A DNA stretch of 64,000 nucleotides from a virus (lineage: Duplodnaviria > Caudoviricetes), in the IMG/VR virus record IMGVR_UViG_3300030104_001945, positions 234 through 64,233 of that record. The stretch is one strand, 5' to 3'. Under the pieces are notes generated by a model. It did no database searches. It worked only from the letters and a program-made list of their open reading frames with translations, and was not told the DNA's origin. Each line of letters starts with the position of its first letter. Position 1 is the stretch's first letter. Position numbers and translations under genes: made by a program. Positions 36,838-54,051 of the stretch are shown piece after piece.

Positions 36838-38307
36838 CTAAATCCATTCTTTCCAGTTATCGCCGGTTATTGAATTGGCTAAAGAAAGTTTGTTTTTTAA
36901 ACTACTAAATATTTTTTCATCAATAGTTTTAGGAGTAACAAAATCAATATATGTTACATTATTTTTTTGACCAATTCTATGGGGTCTATCTTCTGATTGT
37001 AATCTTGCTTCTAAATCGTATGTATTAGCATAATAAATTACAGTTTTAGCTGCAGTTAAAGTTATTCCATACCCACCCATACGAGGATTAGCTACAATAT
37101 ATTTAAATTTACCATCTTGAAATTCATTAATAATTTTTTGTCTATCTTCTGATTTAGTTTCTCCAAAATAAGTTGCTACTGGTATTTTAAAATGTTCTAT
37201 TAATTTAGATTGTATTTCTTTTATAGACCTTTTATAATTAGCCCATATTATTACTTGACCTTCAGTTTCTTCTAGTACTTGAATTAATTCATTTAATCTA
37301 GGATTAGTACCAGGTATTGCTTCTTCAGTACCATCATCATGTTTAACAAACCCACATAAGACTTGATGAAGTCGTAGCAATCTAGTTATGACTAAAGGAG
37401 CAGTTATAGATTTTTCTTTAGATAATTCTACATAGGCTTTTTTACGAAGTGTTTCATATATTCTTTTTTGTTCTGGAGAAAATTCTATTTCTCTCTTTTG
37501 ATATAATTTATCGGGTAAATCTAAACAATCTTCTTTTGTTACTCTAAACATATGAGATTTAATAGATTGTTGAAGTTCATCTAAATTTTGATAATCGACT
37601 ACTTCGTGAAATGTTTTCATATTAATAGTTCTTCTGCGTAGTACACAGTATCTATTTCTAAACCCATAAAAACTACAATTTAAAACATACTCTGATAAAA
37701 AAGTCATTTGAGTATAAATATCAATAGGACTTTGTGTTATTGGAGTTCCTGTTAATACTCTCCTAAATTTAGATTGCTTTGATAACTTTAAAATATTTTT
37801 AGTTCTTCTCGCAGTTCTATGTTTAATGGTACTTGACTCATCAACTACGACTAATGATTTATGCACATTAAGAAAACGTTGAGTATAATTTAATCCTTTA
37901 GTTGTACTAAAAGCTTCTACATTAATAATAAATATTTTTAATTTATGAGTATCTTCTCTTAAAAAATCTTTCAATCTTTTTATATTGGATTTAGTTTCAA
38001 CTGGTTTCCAAAGTTCAATATGAGAATATTCTAGTACATCATCTGGCATATGAATTGGTATTTCTGATTGTTCCCAGTTTCTATATACACCTTTAGGAGC
38101 TATAATTACGGCTGCATTAATAGAACCTTTTCTATATAAATAAGCTATATTATCTACTATTACTTTAGATTTACCAGTACCTTGTTCCATAAACAAAGCA
38201 TAATATTCTTTATCCCTACTAATATTAAAAGCATCAAGTTGATGTTTAAATGGTTCAGTTTTAAATTTAAAGTCCTTAACTTTATCGTCACTAAATATGA
38301 TTTTCAT
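36838..38307 (-). CDS. SNF2-family (SF2) helicase
   Basis: MEQGTGKS, VVDES, LTGTP, GGYGITLT, QSEDRPHRIGQ; only credible minus-strand gene. Confidence 0.93.
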   Translation of the reverse strand: MKIIFSDDKVKDFKFKTEPFKHQLDAFNISRDKEYYALFMEQGTGKSKVIVDNIAYLYRKGSINAAVIIAPKGVYRNWEQSEIPIHMPDDVLEYSHIELWKPVETKSNIKRLKDFLREDTHKLKIFIINVEAFSTTKGLNYTQRFLNVHKSLVVVDESSTIKHRTARRTKNILKLSKQSKFRRVLTGTPITQSPIDIYTQMTFLSEYVLNCSFYGFRNRYCVLRRRTINMKTFHEVVDYQNLDELQQSIKSHMFRVTKEDCLDLPDKLYQKREIEFSPEQKRIYETLRKKAYVELSKEKSITAPLVITRLLRLHQVLCGFVKHDDGTEEAIPGTNPRLNELIQVLEETEGQVIIWANYKRSIKEIQSKLIEHFKIPVATYFGETKSEDRQKIINEFQDGKFKYIVANPRMGGYGITLTAAKTVIYYANTYDLEARLQSEDRPHRIGQKNNVTYIDFVTPKTIDEKIFSSLKNKLSLANSITGDNWKEWI

Positions 38308-41787: not shown

Positions 41788-42576
41788 ATGAAATATTTAT
41801 TTTTTGACGTAGAAACAACAGGATTATGGAGAAGGGATTTGGCACCAACTGATCCTAAACAACCTAAAATAGTTCAAATAGCTGCTCAGTTAGCAAGTGA
41901 AGATGATAAAGTTACTGCACAACTAGCTTGTATAATTCAACCAGATAAATGGACTATTCCAAAAGAAGCATCAGATATTCATCACATAACTGATAATATA
42001 GCTTTGCAACACGGCGTTCCTCTGATAAATGTATTAGCTATGTTTAATTCTTTAGCAGCACAAGCTGACGTATTAGTGGCTCACAATACATCATTTGATT
42101 TACAAATGGTATTAAGAGAATTTAATGCGATAGGAAAAAGTTTTAGAATTCCTAAAGAGCAACACTGTACGATGATGACTGCTAAAGATATTTTAAAATT
42201 AGAAAGTGATTTTGATGATTATAAGTTTCCTAAATTAGAAGAAACATATAAACATTTTCTAGGATCAGGAGGTTATCATAATTGGCACGATGCTTTAACT
42301 GATATAATAATATGCCGAATAATTTACTTCCACATGAAAGCGAAAGGAATAAAAATGGAAAAACCACGTGCAATGCCTAAAGCATTAATTAAAAATCTTG
42401 ACGAAAAAATATACAAAGAGTTTTTAAATCTTATAGAATCTATTAATGAAGATAATTTAAATGATTGGGAGAAAGGTTTTTTAAAAGATCAAAAAGAAAG
42501 ACACGAAAAATATAAAGAAAAAATACTTATGAGTGATAAACAAATGAATATTTTAAGAAAGATGAAAGACAAATGA
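41788..42576 (+). CDS. DEDDh 3'-5' exonuclease
   Basis: FDVETTG, AHNTSFD, HDALTD; ATG at 41788. Confidence 0.9.
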   Translation: MKYLFFDVETTGLWRRDLAPTDPKQPKIVQIAAQLASEDDKVTAQLACIIQPDKWTIPKEASDIHHITDNIALQHGVPLINVLAMFNSLAAQADVLVAHNTSFDLQMVLREFNAIGKSFRIPKEQHCTMMTAKDILKLESDFDDYKFPKLEETYKHFLGSGGYHNWHDALTDIIICRIIYFHMKAKGIKMEKPRAMPKALIKNLDEKIYKEFLNLIESINEDNLNDWEKGFLKDQKERHEKYKEKILMSDKQMNILRKMKDK

Positions 42577-43523
42577 ACATTTTAGTAACAGGTTGTGCTG
42601 GTTTTGTAGGATCACATCTTACAGAGCATTTAGTTAATAGAGGGCATACTGTTTATGGTATAGATAATTTATTAACTGGGCAAGAAAAAAATATAGGTAA
42701 TATACATAGATTTATTGAGGGTGATATATCTAATTCTTCTGATATAAATAAAATAGATATGGGAGGTCCTATTGATCTCATTTATAATTTAGCTTGTCCT
42801 GCAAGTCCTGATCATTATATAAAACATTCTATAAAAACTTTAGACACTTGTTATACCGGTACTAAAAATATTTTAGAGTTAGCTAAAACACATAATTCAA
42901 TAGTTATTCATACTTCTACATCAGAAGTATATGGTAATCCTGATCATACACCTCAAGAAGAAGATTATTATGGAAGTGTAAATTCTTTTGGACCACGAGC
43001 CTGTTATGATGAGGGAAAGAGAGTAGCAGAAGCATTAATTTATGAGTATATTAGATTATATAAATTAGACATCAAAGTAGCAAGATTATTTAATACTTAT
43101 GGGCCTCGTATGTCTGTTAACGATGGACGTGTTGTATCTAATTTTATATGTGCTGCATTACAAGATAAAGAATTATTACTTTATGGAAATGGTATGCAAT
43201 CTCGTTCTTTTTGTTATATCTCCGATACTATACACGCATTATTAGATTTAGCAGAAACTACTAAATTAAATAAACCTGTTAACATTGGTAATCCTGATGA
43301 GAAAAAAATATACAATATAGCAGAATTAATTATAAGAATGACTAGTTCTAAATCAGGAATAATGACAGTAGCACATAAAAAAGATGATCCATTACAACGA
43401 TGTCCTAATATAGAAAGAATTAATATGTTAATAGGCTGGCACCCTAAAGTAACATTATCAGAGGGACTAGAGAAAACCATAGAGTATTTTAGAGAATGTT
43501 TAACAAATCAAACACAAACGTAA
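42573..43523 (+). CDS. UDP-glucuronate decarboxylase (UDP-xylose synthase), extended SDR
   Basis: TGCAGFVG, LACPASP, STSEVYG, GPRACYDEGKRVAE, FNTYGPRM, DGRVVSNF, RSFCY, DDPLQR: UXS-specific motifs. Confidence 0.92.
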   Translation: MNILVTGCAGFVGSHLTEHLVNRGHTVYGIDNLLTGQEKNIGNIHRFIEGDISNSSDINKIDMGGPIDLIYNLACPASPDHYIKHSIKTLDTCYTGTKNILELAKTHNSIVIHTSTSEVYGNPDHTPQEEDYYGSVNSFGPRACYDEGKRVAEALIYEYIRLYKLDIKVARLFNTYGPRMSVNDGRVVSNFICAALQDKELLLYGNGMQSRSFCYISDTIHALLDLAETTKLNKPVNIGNPDEKKIYNIAELIIRMTSSKSGIMTVAHKKDDPLQRCPNIERINMLIGWHPKVTLSEGLEKTIEYFRECLTNQTQT

Positions 43524-45011: not shown

Positions 45012-45680
45012 ATGGATATAAAATTAAAATATTTAAATAATTTTGAAAAGAAAATAGATAATGATATTTATAGTGAACCTAAATCTAAATTACATTATGG
45101 TGTAATAGAACCTCAAACTCAAAAATTTTTAGATACATTTGAAATTAAAGAAGATAAATCAGTTATAGATATAGGTTGTGGAGATGGATATTTTTTATCA
45201 CTATTACAAAAAGCAGGGTTTAAAAATTTAGTTGGAGTAACTAAACATGATGAAGATATAAAAAATTGCAGTAACTATGGATTAAAAGATATTAGAAAAA
45301 CTGATATGACTTTTACAGGGATAAAAGAAAATTTTGATGCTTTATGGTGTAGACATGTATTAGAACATAGTCCATATCCTTATTTAACTTTACATGAATT
45401 TAATCGTTTAGTTAAAATGGGAGGTAATGCTTATGTAGAAGTTCCTGAAGCTGAGGGATATATTAAACATGAAAATAATGCAAATCATTACTCTATGTTA
45501 ACGAAAAGAAATTGGGTATCTTTAATTTTACGATGTGGTTTTGATATAAATAAAATACAAGATATTGATTTAAGTATAAAAAATCCAGAATTTCAAGATG
45601 GGAATCCTTACCCAGAGCAATGGTGGGCTTTTTATTTAACTAAAACAGTCGAATTAAATTTTATGAAAGGAGAGTTATGA
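45012..45680 (+). CDS. Class I SAM-dependent methyltransferase
   Basis: VIDIGCGDG, FDALWCRHVLEH, LVKMGG. Confidence 0.88.
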   Translation: MDIKLKYLNNFEKKIDNDIYSEPKSKLHYGVIEPQTQKFLDTFEIKEDKSVIDIGCGDGYFLSLLQKAGFKNLVGVTKHDEDIKNCSNYGLKDIRKTDMTFTGIKENFDALWCRHVLEHSPYPYLTLHEFNRLVKMGGNAYVEVPEAEGYIKHENNANHYSMLTKRNWVSLILRCGFDINKIQDIDLSIKNPEFQDGNPYPEQWWAFYLTKTVELNFMKGEL

Positions 45681-46735
45681 AAGCAATAGGAAGTTATATA
45701 TTTGCTGGTGGATTCACTATCGGCGTTAAAAAACATTTTGATATTGAAGCACATTTAGAAGGTGATGGATATGGAGCTGATACATTTAGTTTAAATTATC
45801 CAGAAATACCAGTTTTTGTTGGTCCAGAAGATTGGCCTACAGAAAAATATAAAGATAAAATAGATTTTATATATGGTAATCCTCCATGTGCTCCTTGGAG
45901 TACGTTAGGTTCTGGAAGTAAAGGTGCAGATGCATGGAAAACTGATCCTCGTATTAGTTGTTGGAACGATGTATTTTCTTTACTTTATAAAATAAAACCA
46001 AAAGCTTTAGCTATTGAGTCAGTTCCTCGTGTTTATTCAGAAACAGGAGGTAGACCAATGATAATGGATTTTACAAGAAAAGCTAATGAAGAAGGATATG
46101 CAGTTACTCATTTACTAATAGATGGTCAATATGCTGGACTTCCTCATTCAAGAAAAAGATTTTTTTTCATAGCGCATAAAGGAAATTTTAATCCCCCTGC
46201 TCCTAACTGGAATCCTGCGCCAACTGTAGGAGAAGTGTTAGATGAATTAAAAGCAGATGGAATTGAAGCAGGACACACAGCAACGTTAAGTGAAAATGAA
46301 ATGAAATTAACTAAACTGGCTAAACCTGGAGAATCTTTAAGAAATATATGGGAAAGTTTAAACCCACCAGAAACTTGGAAAAGGTCTACTAAAGGAAGAA
46401 AAGGAGTTATAGGTAGACCTCAATTTATGAAATGGAGATTAACTAGAGAACAGATAATGGGAGTTATTGCTGGAAGTTTTTCTATACATCCAGAAGAAGA
46501 TAGGCTTTTAGGAATACAAGAATTATGTGCTTTCTCTGGATATCCAACAGATTATAAATTTGCTGGAGCAAAATCAGGGTGGCCTAGTTTATTAGCTAGA
46601 GGAGTAATGCCTCCAGTAGGTGAATGGGTAGCTAGAAATGTAAAAACAATGATTGAGTCAAATCAACCTTTCGAAGTTAATCATAAAATTATTGATTATC
46701 GTAAACCAACAACAGGAGATTTATTTAATGCTTAG
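45677..46735 (+). CDS. DNA cytosine-C5 methyltransferase homolog with altered SAM-binding motifs
   Basis: Catalytic GNPPC, IESV (motif VI), PHSRKRFF (motif VIII); motif I YIFAGG and motif X ARGV are atypical. Confidence 0.82.
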   Translation: MKAIGSYIFAGGFTIGVKKHFDIEAHLEGDGYGADTFSLNYPEIPVFVGPEDWPTEKYKDKIDFIYGNPPCAPWSTLGSGSKGADAWKTDPRISCWNDVFSLLYKIKPKALAIESVPRVYSETGGRPMIMDFTRKANEEGYAVTHLLIDGQYAGLPHSRKRFFFIAHKGNFNPPAPNWNPAPTVGEVLDELKADGIEAGHTATLSENEMKLTKLAKPGESLRNIWESLNPPETWKRSTKGRKGVIGRPQFMKWRLTREQIMGVIAGSFSIHPEEDRLLGIQELCAFSGYPTDYKFAGAKSGWPSLLARGVMPPVGEWVARNVKTMIESNQPFEVNHKIIDYRKPTTGDLFNA

Positions 46736-47108
46736 AGATATTGAAGAGTTCCATAAAAAATTTGGATTTAAAAAAAGACAAGGTATCAAAAATAATAAAG
46801 ATTTGGTAGACTTTCGGATTAAATTCTTAGAAGAAGAATTAAGAGAATTTAAAGAAGCAATTAAAGAAGAAGATGATGCGAAAGCATTAGATGCTTTAGT
46901 TGATTTAACTTATGTAGCTATAGGAACGGCTTATCTATTTGATTATCCTTTCTGGGTTGCATGGTCAGAAGTACAGAAAGCAAATATGGCAAAAGTAAGA
47001 AAAGAAAGTGAACGTTCTAAATTTGATGTAACTAAACCTAAGGGTTGGAAAGCACCTAATATAGAACAAGTTCTTCACACATTTAAAAAATGGAGCGCAT
47101 GGTCATGA
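46728..47108 (+). CDS. MazG-like nucleotide pyrophosphohydrolase (possible dCTPase/dUTPase)
   Basis: EEELRE...DALVDLTYVAIG...EVQKANMAK...KPKGW; AGGAG before ATG 46728. Confidence 0.85.
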   Translation: MLRDIEEFHKKFGFKKRQGIKNNKDLVDFRIKFLEEELREFKEAIKEEDDAKALDALVDLTYVAIGTAYLFDYPFWVAWSEVQKANMAKVRKESERSKFDVTKPKGWKAPNIEQVLHTFKKWSAWS

Positions 47109-48151
47109 AAGTATTAGTAACAGGATTTACTGCGAAAGGTATTGGCAGTGGTAAAAATGTATTAGAGATTGCGACAGCAGCTAATTGTTTACCAAGAGCA
47201 TTAAGAGAATGTGGAATAGAAGTTGATCATAAACCAGTTATACCTGGAGAAGATATATCAGAATATGATAAAGTAGTTGTATTTGCTTTTGCTCCTAATT
47301 CTTTACCATCATCTTATTTATATGGAGGTCTTTATACTTTATTGAAAAGACCTGACGCATACATAGCATTAGATGATTGGCAAACTAAAGATATAAAACA
47401 AGGGTGTGGTACTTTCGCACGTGATGGCCATTGGCGATTATGGAAAAGAGTAAGTAAAGCAGGTAACTCTGTTGGTAAAAAATTCTTTAATGAAGCACAG
47501 CCCTATAAAAAAGAAATGGAAGATTTAATTACGCAATTAGCTTTCGAACAGTGGCCATATAGAGTTCTAGCACCAGTTTATAAGGGTGGAGACGTATCTC
47601 AACTAGGAATAGATTCCGCAGAAATTATACCATGGGATCCAACTCCTGTTACCGATAGCTATAAAGCAGGAAGTAAATATAATCAATCTTTATTCTCAAG
47701 AATAGATTCACATGATGGACCTAAAAATAAAGAATGGATAATGGCTTCGTTAATTCAAAAACAGAGTTGGTTTAAACGTCAACATTTCGAGTGGAAAGTA
47801 ACTTGCTACGGTAATCCTAATTTAGGTCAAGAACGATTAACTGAACCAGAATTATATAATGAATACCTAAGAGTAAGAGGAATATTAATACCTCCTCATT
47901 ATCATACGATAAAAGGTAGTGGTTGGTGGAGAGTTCGTTATGGCATGATAGCAGACGCAGGTTGTATTGCTTATGGAGAACAAGAAGAAACTAAACTTTT
48001 TGGCGATGCATATAGAATTCATCATAGTGATATAGAAAAAATGAACGACAATGAATTAGATGATTTAGCTAAAGCGCAGAAAGAAGATTTTAATTCTACA
48101 GTATGGAATAAAAATAGATTAAATACGTTTATCGGAGATTACTTTTTATGA
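47105..48151 (+). CDS. GT-B DNA glycosyltransferase-like protein (T4 beta-glucosyltransferase-like)
   Basis: DISEYDKVVVFAFAPN resembles BGT DVNDYDRLIVVNSSIN; WWRVRYGMIADAG resembles BGT TLRVWETMASDA; similar length; context. Confidence 0.62.
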   Translation: MKVLVTGFTAKGIGSGKNVLEIATAANCLPRALRECGIEVDHKPVIPGEDISEYDKVVVFAFAPNSLPSSYLYGGLYTLLKRPDAYIALDDWQTKDIKQGCGTFARDGHWRLWKRVSKAGNSVGKKFFNEAQPYKKEMEDLITQLAFEQWPYRVLAPVYKGGDVSQLGIDSAEIIPWDPTPVTDSYKAGSKYNQSLFSRIDSHDGPKNKEWIMASLIQKQSWFKRQHFEWKVTCYGNPNLGQERLTEPELYNEYLRVRGILIPPHYHTIKGSGWWRVRYGMIADAGCIAYGEQEETKLFGDAYRIHHSDIEKMNDNELDDLAKAQKEDFNSTVWNKNRLNTFIGDYFL

Positions 48152-48753
48152 AAGACAGGAAGAATATAATTAGAGGTATAATTATAGTAGAAGGTGCAGA
48201 CTGTACTGGTAAAACTACTCTAACAGATTTACTTCGTAAAAAGTTTAAAGCACGTTATATGCATTTACGAATCCATAAAAGAATGGAGATATGGCATAAA
48301 GCAACTGTTCGTAGAGCAATAAGATTAGCTAAAGATGAGTTAGTTGTAATAGATAGGCATTGGCCATCAGAAGAAGTTTATTCTTACGAAAGAGCAGATG
48401 GCCCTGAATATAATCCTATTAAGTTGTATAAAAAATTAAAGAAAGCAAATACGTTATATGTATGGTGTGCGCCAGAAGATAGTGCTAGAGTTATAAAAGT
48501 ACATAGAAAAAAGAAAGAAGAACGACATGAAGAATATAGTGATATTACTCGAATTGTCGATAGATACAAACGTTCATGGTATGGTTTAAACTATGAGCAC
48601 GATAATTTTCTTAAATCTCTAGGAGAGTTAAGATGGCGAAAAAACTTCATACGATATGATGTTTTTAAAGAAGGTCATAAGATTGATAGTAAAACTTATG
48701 ATATAATTAATCGATTACGATATTTGAGAGGAGAAGCAGTATGGACGGTTTAG
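48148..48753 (+). CDS. dNMP kinase (thymidylate kinase-like)
   Basis: P-loop VEGADCTGKTT, VIDRHWPSE. Confidence 0.85.
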   Translation: MKDRKNIIRGIIIVEGADCTGKTTLTDLLRKKFKARYMHLRIHKRMEIWHKATVRRAIRLAKDELVVIDRHWPSEEVYSYERADGPEYNPIKLYKKLKKANTLYVWCAPEDSARVIKVHRKKKEERHEEYSDITRIVDRYKRSWYGLNYEHDNFLKSLGELRWRKNFIRYDVFKEGHKIDSKTYDIINRLRYLRGEAVWTV

Positions 48754-49595
48754 CAGCTTTAGCAGCAGATAATGTTTGGAATGATGCTATTTTAGATATT
48801 CAAGGTGGAGTAGAATCCGCACCTCGTGGTTTAGTAACACGAGAAAAAATAAATCATACAACGATGTGCGATATGAGATATCCTATCGTTACTAACACGA
48901 GAAGATTATTGGGTTATAAGTTTATGATTCAAGAAGCTATTTGGATATTAAGAGGGGATAATAGATTAAGTACAATAGAACCTTACTCTAAGATGATTGG
49001 TAAATTTAGTGATGATAAATATTTCTTTCGAGGTGCATATGGTCCTAAAATTATAGATCAACTTCAATATATATGTAAGTCATTAAAAGAAGATAGAAAC
49101 ACGAGACAAGCAGTTATAAATATTTGGAGAGAAAGTCCTCATGATACTAACGATGTACCTTGTACTGTATCTTTTCAATTTTTAATTCGTCAAGATAAAT
49201 TACATATCATAGCTAATATGCGTTCAAACGATTTGTGGTTAGGTTGGCCTTATGATAATTTTAATTTTTCTATGCTTGGCGCATACGTTGCTTTATTACT
49301 ATATGATATTTATAAAGTAGAAGTAGGATTAGGAATAACAACTATTAATGCTGGTTCACGTCATTTATATAAACCAAATTTTGAGTCAGCAGATATGTGT
49401 ACTCGTTCTAATTATGAAGATTATGTGAACTATAAACCATTGAATTTAAAGGATTATAGTAGTGCAGAAGATTTCTTAGAGCATTTAGAATTTGTATCTT
49501 TAGATAAAGGTCAAATTAACGAAATGAAAGTAAAAGCATTAGACCGTGAATATGGAAAAGGATTTGCCCATGAACTTTTCAACAAGGCCAAGTAA
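48741..49595 (+). CDS. Thymidylate synthase homolog, predicted dCMP hydroxymethylase-type
   Basis: GAYGP, RQAV, catalytic DVPCT, MRSNDLWLGWPYD with Asp at the E. coli TS Asn177/T4 gp42 Asp179 position. Confidence 0.82.
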   Translation: MDGLAALAADNVWNDAILDIQGGVESAPRGLVTREKINHTTMCDMRYPIVTNTRRLLGYKFMIQEAIWILRGDNRLSTIEPYSKMIGKFSDDKYFFRGAYGPKIIDQLQYICKSLKEDRNTRQAVINIWRESPHDTNDVPCTVSFQFLIRQDKLHIIANMRSNDLWLGWPYDNFNFSMLGAYVALLLYDIYKVEVGLGITTINAGSRHLYKPNFESADMCTRSNYEDYVNYKPLNLKDYSSAEDFLEHLEFVSLDKGQINEMKVKALDREYGKGFAHELFNKAK

Positions 49596-50031
49596 GCACG
49601 AAACTTTTTTAGAAATTGCTAAGACTGTCTCGGAACAAGCAACATGCATCCGGCGTAATGTTGGATGTGTGTTAGTTAATTCTAAAAATCATATTCTTGC
49701 AACTGGATATAATGGAGTTCCTGCAGGAGCAGTGCATTGTTTAGATTTACCTTGTAGTGGAGCAGAGTTTCCATCAGGAGAAGGATTAAATTCTTGCGAA
49801 GCGATTCACGCAGAACAAAACGCATTACTTCAATGTAAAGATATTTATGATATTGAAAAATGTTATTGTACAGTAAGTCCGTGTATGACGTGTGTAAAAT
49901 TATTATTAAATACTTCTTGTAGTATTTTAATTTTTCCTACTTTATATACAGACGTAGAGCCATTAGAACTTTGGAAAAAATCAGAAAGAGAGTATATTAT
50001 TTATGAACGACCTATTCAAACCCGCCAGTAA
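49570..50031 (+). CDS. dCMP deaminase
   Basis: ATGYNG, HAEQNA, SPCMTC zinc motifs. Confidence 0.92.
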   Translation: MNFSTRPSKHETFLEIAKTVSEQATCIRRNVGCVLVNSKNHILATGYNGVPAGAVHCLDLPCSGAEFPSGEGLNSCEAIHAEQNALLQCKDIYDIEKCYCTVSPCMTCVKLLLNTSCSILIFPTLYTDVEPLELWKKSEREYIIYERPIQTRQ

Positions 50032-53108: not shown

Positions 53109-53372
53109 ATGGTTCGTATCACGTGGTTAGATGCACGTGATACGGAAACCGGGTGGCTTGATATAAAAGATGTCATTGAAGCACCTTTAGCAATATGCCA
53201 AGAAGTTGGTTGGATGGTCGTTAATAATAATGAGAAAGTTGTTATTATGCGTTCTTACAGTAAAGATAAAGATGAAGTATCTGGCGGTGGGTCAATTGCT
53301 ATCCCTAAAGGTTGGATAACTAAAATAGAATACTTGGAGGTATCATATGGAGAAAGAAGCGATAATAGGTAA
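53109..53372 (+). CDS. Conserved small phage protein
   Basis: ITWLDA...GW...VGW...IPKGWI. Confidence 0.65.
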   Translation: MVRITWLDARDTETGWLDIKDVIEAPLAICQEVGWMVVNNNEKVVIMRSYSKDKDEVSGGGSIAIPKGWITKIEYLEVSYGERSDNR

Positions 53373-54051
53373 TGTATTCGGCAAAACTATTTATAAATCG
53401 TCAATCAAGGATCATCAATATTTAAATGGTAAAGTTGGACCTCTTATTAAGAAATTTGTAAAACAGAAACCAGGAAGTGTAGCTGCAACGACAGATGTAG
53501 AAGGTAATCTTAAAGCAACGATATTAGAAAATGCAGTTGATAATTTACATTTACAAGATGACTATAAAGAATTGTTTGATGCATTATCTTTTGATATAAA
53601 AGGATTTATGGCAGCGAAATCTTATGACGATAGTAAGTTTGATATAAACATTACTAAAGCATGGGCAACTTATACGAGTAAGGGACAAAATATCCCTTCA
53701 CATAAACATACTGCGTCACATTTTAGTTGTGTATATTATGTGCATAACGAAGGTATGGGCGATATTAAATTTGAACAGGAACTTTATTCTCATGATGGAT
53801 TTTTTATTCCACCAACAGAGGCTTATATAAAAGAATGGAATCAATTTAATTTTGCAAGTTATAAATTTGAAGTAAAGTCAGGGGATTTTATTATATTCCC
53901 CAGTAGTTTACTTCATCAAACTGAAACTAATAATAAAGATGATGCTAGAATAAGTATTTCAGCAGATATTCTTTTAACAATGAAAGAGGGGGTTAGTACA
54001 GAGCACTGTATTCCAAGTCCAAAAACTTGGAAAACAATATATACTTCATAA
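53347..54051 (+). CDS. 2OG-Fe(II) oxygenase (TIGR02466-like)
   Basis: HKH...SCVYY...GDFIIFPSSLLH...RISIS. Confidence 0.82.
   Translation: MEKEAIIGNVFGKTIYKSSIKDHQYLNGKVGPLIKKFVKQKPGSVAATTDVEGNLKATILENAVDNLHLQDDYKELFDALSFDIKGFMAAKSYDDSKFDINITKAWATYTSKGQNIPSHKHTASHFSCVYYVHNEGMGDIKFEQELYSHDGFFIPPTEAYIKEWNQFNFASYKFEVKSGDFIIFPSSLLHQTETNNKDDARISISADILLTMKEGVSTEHCIPSPKTWKTIYTS

Follow-up and report, generated by a model that had tools for sequence, protein, structure and literature searches.

A phage-only subfamily of the DNA cytosine-C5 methyltransferase fold, linked to hydroxymethylcytosine synthesis, as a candidate for a new DNA-base reaction

Introduction

What does an enzyme built like a DNA cytosine-C5 methyltransferase do in a phage whose genes predict that C5 of its cytosines is already occupied before replication? 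The question is raised by the virus record IMGVR_UViG_3300030104_001945 of IMG/VR (Duplodnaviria; Caudoviricetes), a 64,233-base record rated complete, nearly all of which is covered by the stretch of 64,000 nucleotides analysed here (positions 234 to 64,233; hereafter the window). The G+C content of the window is about 33%, and nearly all of its genes lie on the plus strand. One of them, here called C5L, encodes a protein of the C5-methyltransferase fold and stands among genes for the predicted synthesis of 5-hydroxymethylcytosine (hmC).

C5L is a member of a large phage-only subfamily of this fold, and it probably carries out a DNA-base reaction that is new to description. Judging from sequence and gene context, we tentatively favour a cysteine-dependent enzyme that would act on hmC in phage DNA without canonical use of S-adenosylmethionine (SAM).

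Catalytic residues and cofactor pocket of C5L

The gene and its motifs are as follows.

45677–46735, plus strand: C5L, gene of the C5-methyltransferase fold (352 amino acids; PF00145), a single open reading frame (ORF) at exactly these coordinates
45695–45715, plus strand: motif I, Y7-I-F9-A-G-G-F13, aligned under F-S-G-A-G-G, with Phe where FxGxG has its first Gly
45758–45760, plus strand: E28, the motif II Glu, kept; aligns with E40 of HhaI, the canonical cofactor-ribose binder
45824–45838, plus strand: motif III region, P50-E-D-W53-P54, with G49-P50 under the G-D of HaeIII and HhaI
45878–45892, plus strand: motif IV, N68-P-P-C71-A72, under G-G-P-P-C-Q; catalytic Cys kept, Gln replaced by Ala, Asn before PPC
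46016–46024, plus strand: motif VI, E114-S115-V116, the ENV motif with Ser for Asn
46151–46159, plus strand: motif VIII, R159-K-R161, the RxR motif
46595–46615, plus strand: motif X, A307-R308-G-V-M-P-P, under G-N-A-V-P-P-P (I-G-N-A-V-P-P-P in MET1), with AR for GN

The ATG of C5L lies a few bases 3' of the Shine–Dalgarno sequence AAAGGAGAG, and the start overlaps the upstream stop as ATGA. Residues 10–323 fall on positions 10–323 of the 324 in the PF00145 profile (E 5.1e-28; 98.9 bits, cut-off 22), a whole-domain match above the curated cut-off that places the protein in this superfamily. An AlphaFold2 model built from 44 family sequences (predicted local distance difference test, pLDDT, 93.8; predicted template-modelling score 0.91) has the Rossmann-like catalytic domain and the small domain of the PF00145 fold; its best Foldseek matches in the PDB are MET1, M.HaeIII and M.HhaI (E about 1e-17, template-modelling score, TM, 0.65–0.74). 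A look-up of C5L in a protein-cluster atlas returned generic PF00145 clusters only.

The motifs were placed by HMMER alignments to M.HaeIII, M.HhaI, the CP-933R prophage methylase 3G7U and plant MET1. A preliminary description of the window had reported that PC, E(S)V and RxR are retained while motif I reads YIFAGG and motif X reads ARGV, and all of these motifs lie where it had put them. By these alignments, C5L holds every residue needed for covalent attack on a flipped cytosine: the catalytic Pro-Cys (C71), the Glu of ENV (E114), both arginines of Arg-x-Arg (R159, R161) and motif IX, which is also retained. The SAM-binding FxGxG is replaced by Y-I-F-A-G-G, and the motif III Asp and motif X Gly-Asn by P50 and A307-R308.

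The roles assigned to the pocket residues are those generally known for M.HhaI. Aligned to HhaI and HaeIII, seven of the nine canonical cofactor and C5-pocket positions are changed and conserved in their new state across the family (in HhaI numbering, F18 to mostly Y, G20 to F/Y, W41 lost, D60 to P, Q82 to A, N120 to S and N304 to R/Q/K); the sole exceptions are E40, which is E28 here, and the catalytic Pro-Cys. Thus the aromatic residue next to the motif II Glu is lost while E28 itself is kept, and the motif III Asp, which contacts adenine N6, is replaced by Pro50, with the gain of an invariant W53-P54. The adenosine-binding roles of the F, E, F and D residues and the role of N304 are confirmed by the CmoX paper (PMC12783734).

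Conservation and distribution of the subfamily

A word-indexed search found 126 relatives, 120 of which are listed. When 1.84 billion representatives were scanned with HMMER, 335 clusters at 50% identity fell below E 1e-30, and the top 150 of these are listed. The 250 listed family proteins and the query form an alignment of 251 sequences from which no rows were dropped; the counts below refer to readable sequences.

Conservation of the catalytic positions is nearly complete: C71 is found in 247 of 247 sequences, E114 in 249 of 249, and R159 and R161 in all 251. The changed positions are held just as firmly, with N68 in 241/241, A72 in 239/247, S115 in 247/249 and W53 in 241/241; E28 is kept in 235/240. 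Position 9 is Phe in 207 sequences, Tyr in 30, Lys in one and a gap in 13, which makes it aromatic (F/Y) in 237 of the 238 readable ones. At position 308, 164 sequences have Arg, 47 Gln, 34 Lys and one Gly, with five gaps; among the 246 readable sequences, Arg or Lys thus occurs in 198, Gln in 47 (19%) and Asn never. The motif changes are neither chance nor decay, because relatives down to about 31% identity keep the same states. Non-conservation among homologs would have counted against the preliminary description; the 251-sequence alignment bears out its substitutions as conserved, and these family-wide changes support its judgement that C5L is not an ordinary methylase.

The region that separates motifs VIII and IX contains the near-invariant residues G246-R-P, R254, H271-P and R276. 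The target region is thus conserved across the C5L family, whereas it is variable in sequence-specific methylases.

A pattern scan of IMG/VR confirmed 132 loci among 145 candidate stretches, 80 of which were kept. In prokaryotes, a scan of one genome per species (185,579 species) gave four loci, all in metagenome-assembled genomes; the C5L family is phage-only. Contigs of metagenome-assembled genomes of Dehalococcoidia (L086) and Patescibacteria (L087) carry relatives at 27–30% identity that keep NPPCA, ES(V/I), an aromatic position 9 and Q or R at 308. The stretch bearing C5L itself recurs in 20 rows of five metagenome studies, all marine and all as contigs.

A literature search, with Iyer et al. 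2013 and the supplements of the CmoX paper outside its scope, found no description of the NPPC / F-A-G-G subfamily. The fold and the surrounding pathway are of known kinds; no description was found for the subfamily, its pocket or its linkage, and there is a real chance of a new reaction.

An operon with a predicted hydroxymethylcytosine module

The genes around C5L are listed in order.

42573–43523, plus strand: SDR-type nucleoside-diphosphate-sugar 4,6-dehydratase/decarboxylase/epimerase (PF01370, E 1.5e-50; all NCBIfam matches below cut-off)
from 43496: UvrD-type helicase
45012–45680, plus strand: MT1, class I SAM methyltransferase (Methyltransf_23, E 5.9e-16; phrog_4752); its stop overlaps the C5L start
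46653–47108, plus strand: MazG/PRA-PH-type nucleotide pyrophosphohydrolase, a putative dCTPase (PF01503, E 6.8e-10; phrog_671)
47090–48151, plus strand: beta-glucosyltransferase (BGT)-like GT-B glycosyltransferase (phrog_14998), without a Pfam match; AlphaFold2 model with pLDDT 84.3
48148–48753, plus strand: P-loop dNMP-kinase-like protein (phrog_761, E 6.7e-13; TIGR00041 matches the P-loop only)
48741–49595, plus strand: thymidylate-synthase (TS) homolog (PF00303), with the CMP hydroxymethylase MilA as best PDB match
49546–50031, plus strand: dCMP deaminase (PF00383, E 1.1e-18)
from 50003: family A polymerase

By predicted activities, C5L lies in one translationally coupled operon with a T4-like hmC module, a class I methyltransferase and a DNA polymerase. 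The pyrophosphatase, the dNMP kinase and the DNA glycosyltransferase of a T4-type module are all found in the window as predicted activities. The listed TTG start of the MazG ORF is probably wrong, as an in-frame ATG at 46728 follows AGGAG and gives an overlap of 8 bases with the end of C5L. The best PDB matches of the BGT-like model are structures of T4 beta-glucosyltransferase (1qkj, 1c3j and 1j39; TM 0.56–0.61, E about 1e-6), and phrog_14998 has relatives in T4-like Aeromonas phages, Gordonia phages and Erwinia phage FBB1, where it adjoins a UDP-galactopyranose mutase. A complex prediction for C5L and the BGT-like transferase (score 0.00, mark 0.32) weighs neither way.

MT1 was considered as a CmoA-like synthase of carboxy-SAM (Cx-SAM) and rejected, with no match to TIGR00740; it has only weak, below-cut-off matches, to CmoB, UbiG and a DVU_1556-family model. 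Two further genes of the window lie apart from this group. A SNF2-type helicase (36838–38307, minus strand) is the sole sizeable minus-strand gene and marks the switch between the structural and the replication block. Downstream of the polymerase lies a 2-oxoglutarate–Fe(II) oxygenase (53347–54051, plus strand; phrog_81, TIGR02466 family), not of TET/JBP type by name, for which 2 of the 80 loci have a BLASTP match, many loci ending before that distance.

Linkage across the family

The window proteins were compared with the ORFs of the 80 loci by BLASTP (E <= 1e-5) over at most 10 kb on each side, many of these flanks being ended by contig edges. Matches were found to MazG in 67 loci, the TS homolog in 64, the helicase in 58, the polymerase in 55, the deaminase in 53, the kinase in 50, the BGT-like transferase in 49, the sugar enzyme in 16 and the class I methyltransferase in 12. 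In the distant loci the genes stand in another order. When family proteins are grouped into 21 clusters at 50% identity, the TS homolog accompanies 19 of them, MazG 16 and the deaminase 13, and each of the 22 related genomes searched, 15 of which have a completeness of 90% or more, contains PF00303. The coexistence with a dCMP hydroxymethylase that the preliminary description had pointed out thus extends well beyond the window: such a module is tied to the gene in every lineage examined.

The identity of the TS homolog is central to this linkage. In E. coli numbering, the window protein has D143, C146, D169 and D177, and the signature D/E143, C146, D169, D177 occurs in 63 of 63 full-length homologs, namely the window's own and 62 from the 64 related loci with a homolog, two truncated copies being excluded. 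According to PMC13326640 (Lee et al., NAR 2026), dCMP is selected by N177D, hydroxymethyl instead of methyl products are associated with an acidic residue at position 143, and D169N is the mark of 5-hydroxy-dCMP synthases. Because D143, D169 and D177 satisfy these rules, the window homolog is read from its residues as a 5-hydroxymethyl-dCMP synthase of the T4/MilA type. Two other assignments were rejected on the same rules: a 5-hydroxy-dCMP synthase by the kept D169, and a dCMP methylase by position 143, which is Asp and not a bulky hydrophobic residue.

Metavirome work (PMC8670742; bioRxiv 10.1101/2024.12.05.627091) has tied the module of Asp177-type TS, PRA-PH, deaminase and polymerase A to modified cytosine. 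In the latter study, 5-methyl-dCMP proved to be the product of five of the seven deaminase-linked TS homologs tested, and it is therefore the residue-143 rule by itself that carries the hydroxymethyl call.

Fusions and the residue at position 308

Among the 250 listed family proteins, several are fused to further domains. A BGT-like domain is attached C-terminally to C5L in 14, and a C-terminal segment of 199–278 amino acids occurs in 13; the three of these that were scanned all match Methyltransf_23, which is also the best Pfam family of MT1, and the fusion protein P0125 matches phrog_4752 as MT1 does. A domain of about 440 amino acids at either end is found in nine proteins, with a weak, below-cut-off Glyco_trans_1_2 match in two of the three scanned, and one protein (P0170) is a fusion of C5L and MazG. 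Two long proteins that are gapped at motif IV were scanned (P0149 and P0169), and in each the PPC motif is interrupted by an intein bearing a LAGLIDADG endonuclease. In P0169, a domain of the uracil-DNA glycosylase (UDG) superfamily also precedes the BGT-like domain.

Residue 308 varies in step with the kind of partner enzyme. It is Arg in 48 of 48 loci with a BGT-like gene and a readable residue, as well as in 14 of 14 BGT-like fusions, and no BGT-like gene is found in the 10 loci with Gln or Lys; it is also absent from 19 Arg loci, some of them at contig ends.

Other genes adjoin family members. Just 5' of one Gln-type member lie a myo-inositol-1-phosphate synthase, a short-chain dehydrogenase and a GFO/IDH/MocA oxidoreductase (L077:5230–7944, plus strand), genes that hint at a cyclitol-derived DNA decoration. 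Directly 3' of Gln-type members are found a radical SAM/SPASM protein (L061:10438–11376, plus strand) and a UDG-superfamily protein (L070:11931–12746, plus strand). An 883-amino-acid ORF beside a further member (L057:11610–14258, plus strand) has a C-terminal ADP-ribosyltransferase-exoenzyme domain (PF03496, E 1.3e-21). Of ten large ORFs next to distant relatives, five are without a Pfam family.

A possible reaction on hydroxymethylcytosine

Gene content suggests that the phage would exchange cytosine for hmC at the nucleotide level, as T4 does, and that C5L would then act on the replicated DNA. The favoured cysteine-dependent reaction would begin with the addition of C71 to C6 of 5-hydroxymethylcytosine. 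This adduct would enable chemistry at the exocyclic C5-methylene, in which the hydroxyl, or a group attached to it, is lost and another group is captured. The former SAM site (F9, W53, E28 and R/Q/K308) may hold the C5 substituent or the incoming group instead of SAM in its usual pose, with A72 and S115 widening the pocket to make room for the C5 substituent, and the product might be made or finished jointly with the glycosyltransferase or methyltransferase that is fused in relatives.

Aromatic residues together with Glu and Arg/Gln are typical of sugar-binding sites, and C5 methylases can couple thiols to hmC. An enzyme that requires a free C5-H would find little substrate in hmC DNA, while one that attacks C6 of hmC would find plenty, which favours chemistry at the exocyclic methylene. 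The linkage to hmC synthesis also supports action on hmC, since an enzyme in need of a free C5-H would hardly be confined to genomes with a blocked C5. C5 methyltransferases form covalent complexes with 5hmC DNA and can remove the hydroxymethyl group (PMC11347137). Among the options of the preliminary description, hmC editing is the one that gene context favours; de-modification is chemically possible but, biologically, hard to reconcile with a phage's investment in hmC.

A more specific and more doubtful version is a natural hydroxymethylcytosine-exchange enzyme. Here, Cys at C6 would expel the oxygen substituent to give an exocyclic methylene, to which the rebuilt pocket would deliver a non-activated nucleophile (a sugar, cyclitol, amine or acid), the choice being set by residue 308 and the accessory genes.

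Several points weigh against action on hmC. The proposed C5-substituent pocket is read from an alignment and from contacts known in HhaI. An adenosyl cofactor may still bind, E28 being near-invariant and position 7 usually aromatic, and Arg or Lys at 308, in 198 of 246 members, is the state expected of a Cx-SAM enzyme. If the replacement of cytosine by hmC were partial, it would leave unmodified cytosine as a substrate. The BGT-like transferase also occurs in 19 records of T4-like Aeromonas phages, while Aeromonas is absent from the ten organism names listed for C5L matches, which leaves room for no more than one Aeromonas phage among the 78 records; the presence of the transferase without the C5L family in these phages indicates that it is independent of C5L. 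Among 50,697 records of cultured phages, those 78 matches reach at best 26.7% identity, and no cultured member was found. Finally, beyond the count over 21 clusters, the co-occurrence and residue-308 counts ignore kinship.

Other explanations of the subfamily

The first alternative is that C5L acts on unmodified cytosine, in stray phage positions or host DNA, by a non-methyl route. We judge it somewhat unlikely. Either cytosine would be hydroxymethylated in place with formaldehyde or methylene-tetrahydrofolate, the fused transferase finishing the product, or it would be deaminated hydrolytically to uracil, as by C5 methylases starved of SAM, with repair initiated by UDG refilling the site with hmC. 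The catalytic set of C5L is the one required to attack cytosine, and hmC DNA would be immune, which would also explain the strict linkage to the hmC synthase. The order of the fusions, C5L followed by the transferase, fits a handle made first and decorated next; UDG-superfamily domains recur, fused in P0169 and adjoining in L070; and SAM-free deamination by M.SssI is the subject of PMC3804486. However, this explanation accounts neither for the tracking of residue 308 with the partner enzymes nor for the gain of aromatic residues in the pocket, no signature for binding a folate-type or other donor was found in C5L, and T4-like phages do without such an enzyme.

Carboxymethylation, which the preliminary description had put forward, has a real precedent. 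CmoX (Yang et al., Nat Commun 2025, December; PMC12783734; PDB 8YF3) is a natural DNA C5-carboxymethyltransferase encoded by Synechococcus phage S-B43; its cofactor is Cx-SAM, the product of a phage CmoA. R350 of CmoX replaces N304 of HhaI and contacts the carboxylate, while F25, E47, F48 and D69 hold the adenosine; candidates for CmoX were defined by SPPC and R350, and 5615 CmoX come with 4257 CmoA genes and 2251 ligases (PMC12783734). By analogy, C5L could be a carboxymethyltransferase that draws on host Cx-SAM, the neighbouring class I methyltransferase then esterifying the carboxylate. Arg308 sits at the position of R350 and of the engineered N374K of M.MpeI, R/K occupies it in the 198 of 246 members already mentioned, and neither enzyme has Gln after PC (SPPC-S in CmoX, NPPC-A in the C5L family). 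The cofactor for the experiment reported with CmoX came from the CmoA of E. coli itself (PMC12783734).

C5L nevertheless does not fit this precedent, and we regard such an activity as improbable. SPPC is absent, the first residue being N in 241 of 241 readable sequences, and Gln308 in 47 of 246 members lacks the basic side chain of R350. CmoA (TIGR00740) was found neither in the phage's own genome (E <= 1) nor in 22 related genomes (E <= 0.01; completeness 90% or more in 15), and the Asn-synthase-type ligase (PF00733), whose counterpart CmoY is a frequent, non-obligatory companion of CmoX, is likewise absent from all 23. The CmoA cut-off was passed by one of 14 control genomes (that of E. coli), so most hosts would supply no Cx-SAM. 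Among the matches to C5L, 8YF3 ranks tenth by sequence (phmmer E 2e-7) and 13th by fold (Foldseek), behind ordinary methylases and no closer than HaeIII or HhaI. Of the residues with which CmoX contacts adenosine, Y7 and E28 appear kept and the equivalents of F48 and D69 appear lost, an equivalence drawn indirectly through HhaI and HaeIII, since 8YF3 itself aligned over 86–209 only. The reaction would, moreover, require a free C5-H in a genome built with hmC. The preliminary interpretation therefore stands in part: the departure from ordinary methylases is upheld, and its carboxymethyltransferase option is weakened by the missing SPPC, the missing CmoA and ligase, the 19% of Gln and the loss by alignment of adenine-binding residues that CmoX keeps.

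C5L may also be an ordinary, if divergent, SAM-dependent methylase producing 5-methylcytosine, for example to protect residual cytosine or to mark sites. Its clear PF00145 membership and fold, the kept E28 and its name in the sources that give it one (site-specific DNA-cytosine methylase, assigned automatically) speak for this, but the case is a poor one. The seven changed pocket positions, among them Phe for the first Gly of FxGxG and the lost adenine-binding Asp, are frozen across more than 250 sequences; the linkage to the hmC synthase is exclusive and the family, in contrast to ordinary methylases, is near-absent from the 185,579 prokaryote species; and the target-recognition region is conserved across the family at G246-R-P, R254, H271-P and R276.

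A non-catalytic, base-flipping or DNA-binding accessory that presents hmC to the glycosyltransferase would suit the transferase fusions and the rebuilt cofactor site but is very improbable, given that C71, E114, R159 and R161 never vary among the 247 to 251 readable sequences, that the PPC motif of some relatives harbours inteins, which favour essential active sites, and that T4 BGT flips its own base.

Significance

If C5L acts on 5hmC or with a partner other than SAM, it would represent a new reaction type for a very well-studied fold and would imply that abundant phages of marine, freshwater and soil habitats contain cytosine bases not yet described. Should the exchange version be true, these would be C5-methylene-linked cytosine bases new to description, reached by a cytosine counterpart of the thymine kinase and aGPT-Pplase route that starts from a methyltransferase scaffold. 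Enzymes of the C5L type are candidate tools for the site- or base-selective labelling of 5hmC, and they matter for predicting the resistance of phages to restriction and CRISPR.

Comparison with known systems

C5L has the fold of M.HaeIII and M.HhaI, with motifs I to X in the same order, and the three have in common the catalytic Cys, the Glu, the Arg-x-Arg and motif IX. C5L differs from the other two in its cofactor pocket (at motifs I, III and X, in the residue that follows PC, and with ESV for ENV), in its conserved target-recognition region and in its phage-only distribution.

Laboratory variants of such methylases resemble C5L at single positions. M.HhaI variants with a widened pocket (Q82A/N304A) reportedly exist, and like C5L they have a small residue for the Gln after PC. 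M.MpeI N374K, an engineered carboxymethyltransferase named in PMC12783734, shares with it a basic residue at the motif X Asn. The SAM site of these variants is otherwise intact, whereas in C5L the adenine and methionine parts are changed as well.

CmoX is, like C5L, a phage homolog of C5 methyltransferases with Arg for the motif X Asn and without Gln after PC, and the group it installs or handles is not methyl and is extended by other enzymes. The two differ in their motifs, CmoX having SPPC and ENV, and C5L having NPPC, ESV, F for the first Gly of motif I and P for the motif III Asp. They also differ in company: CmoX travels with CmoA and often with the Asn-synthase-type ligase CmoY, C5L with an hmC synthase.

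The glucosyl-hmC pathway of T4 (the gp56 dCTPase, gp42, gp1 and beta-glucosyltransferase) has a predicted functional counterpart of each step in the C5L operon. Unlike the C5L phage, T4 and the T4-like Aeromonas phages with the same type of transferase have no C5-methyltransferase-like gene.

The hypermodification of thymidine by the 5-hydroxymethyldeoxyuridine kinase and aGPT-Pplase (PMC8989533) resembles the proposed action of C5L in its working only, as a post-replicative exchange at the exocyclic methylene of a 5-hydroxymethylpyrimidine in DNA. The folds are unrelated, and that route acts on uracil and uses phosphorylation to activate the hydroxyl, whereas C5L would activate its base by the addition of Cys at C6 of cytosine.

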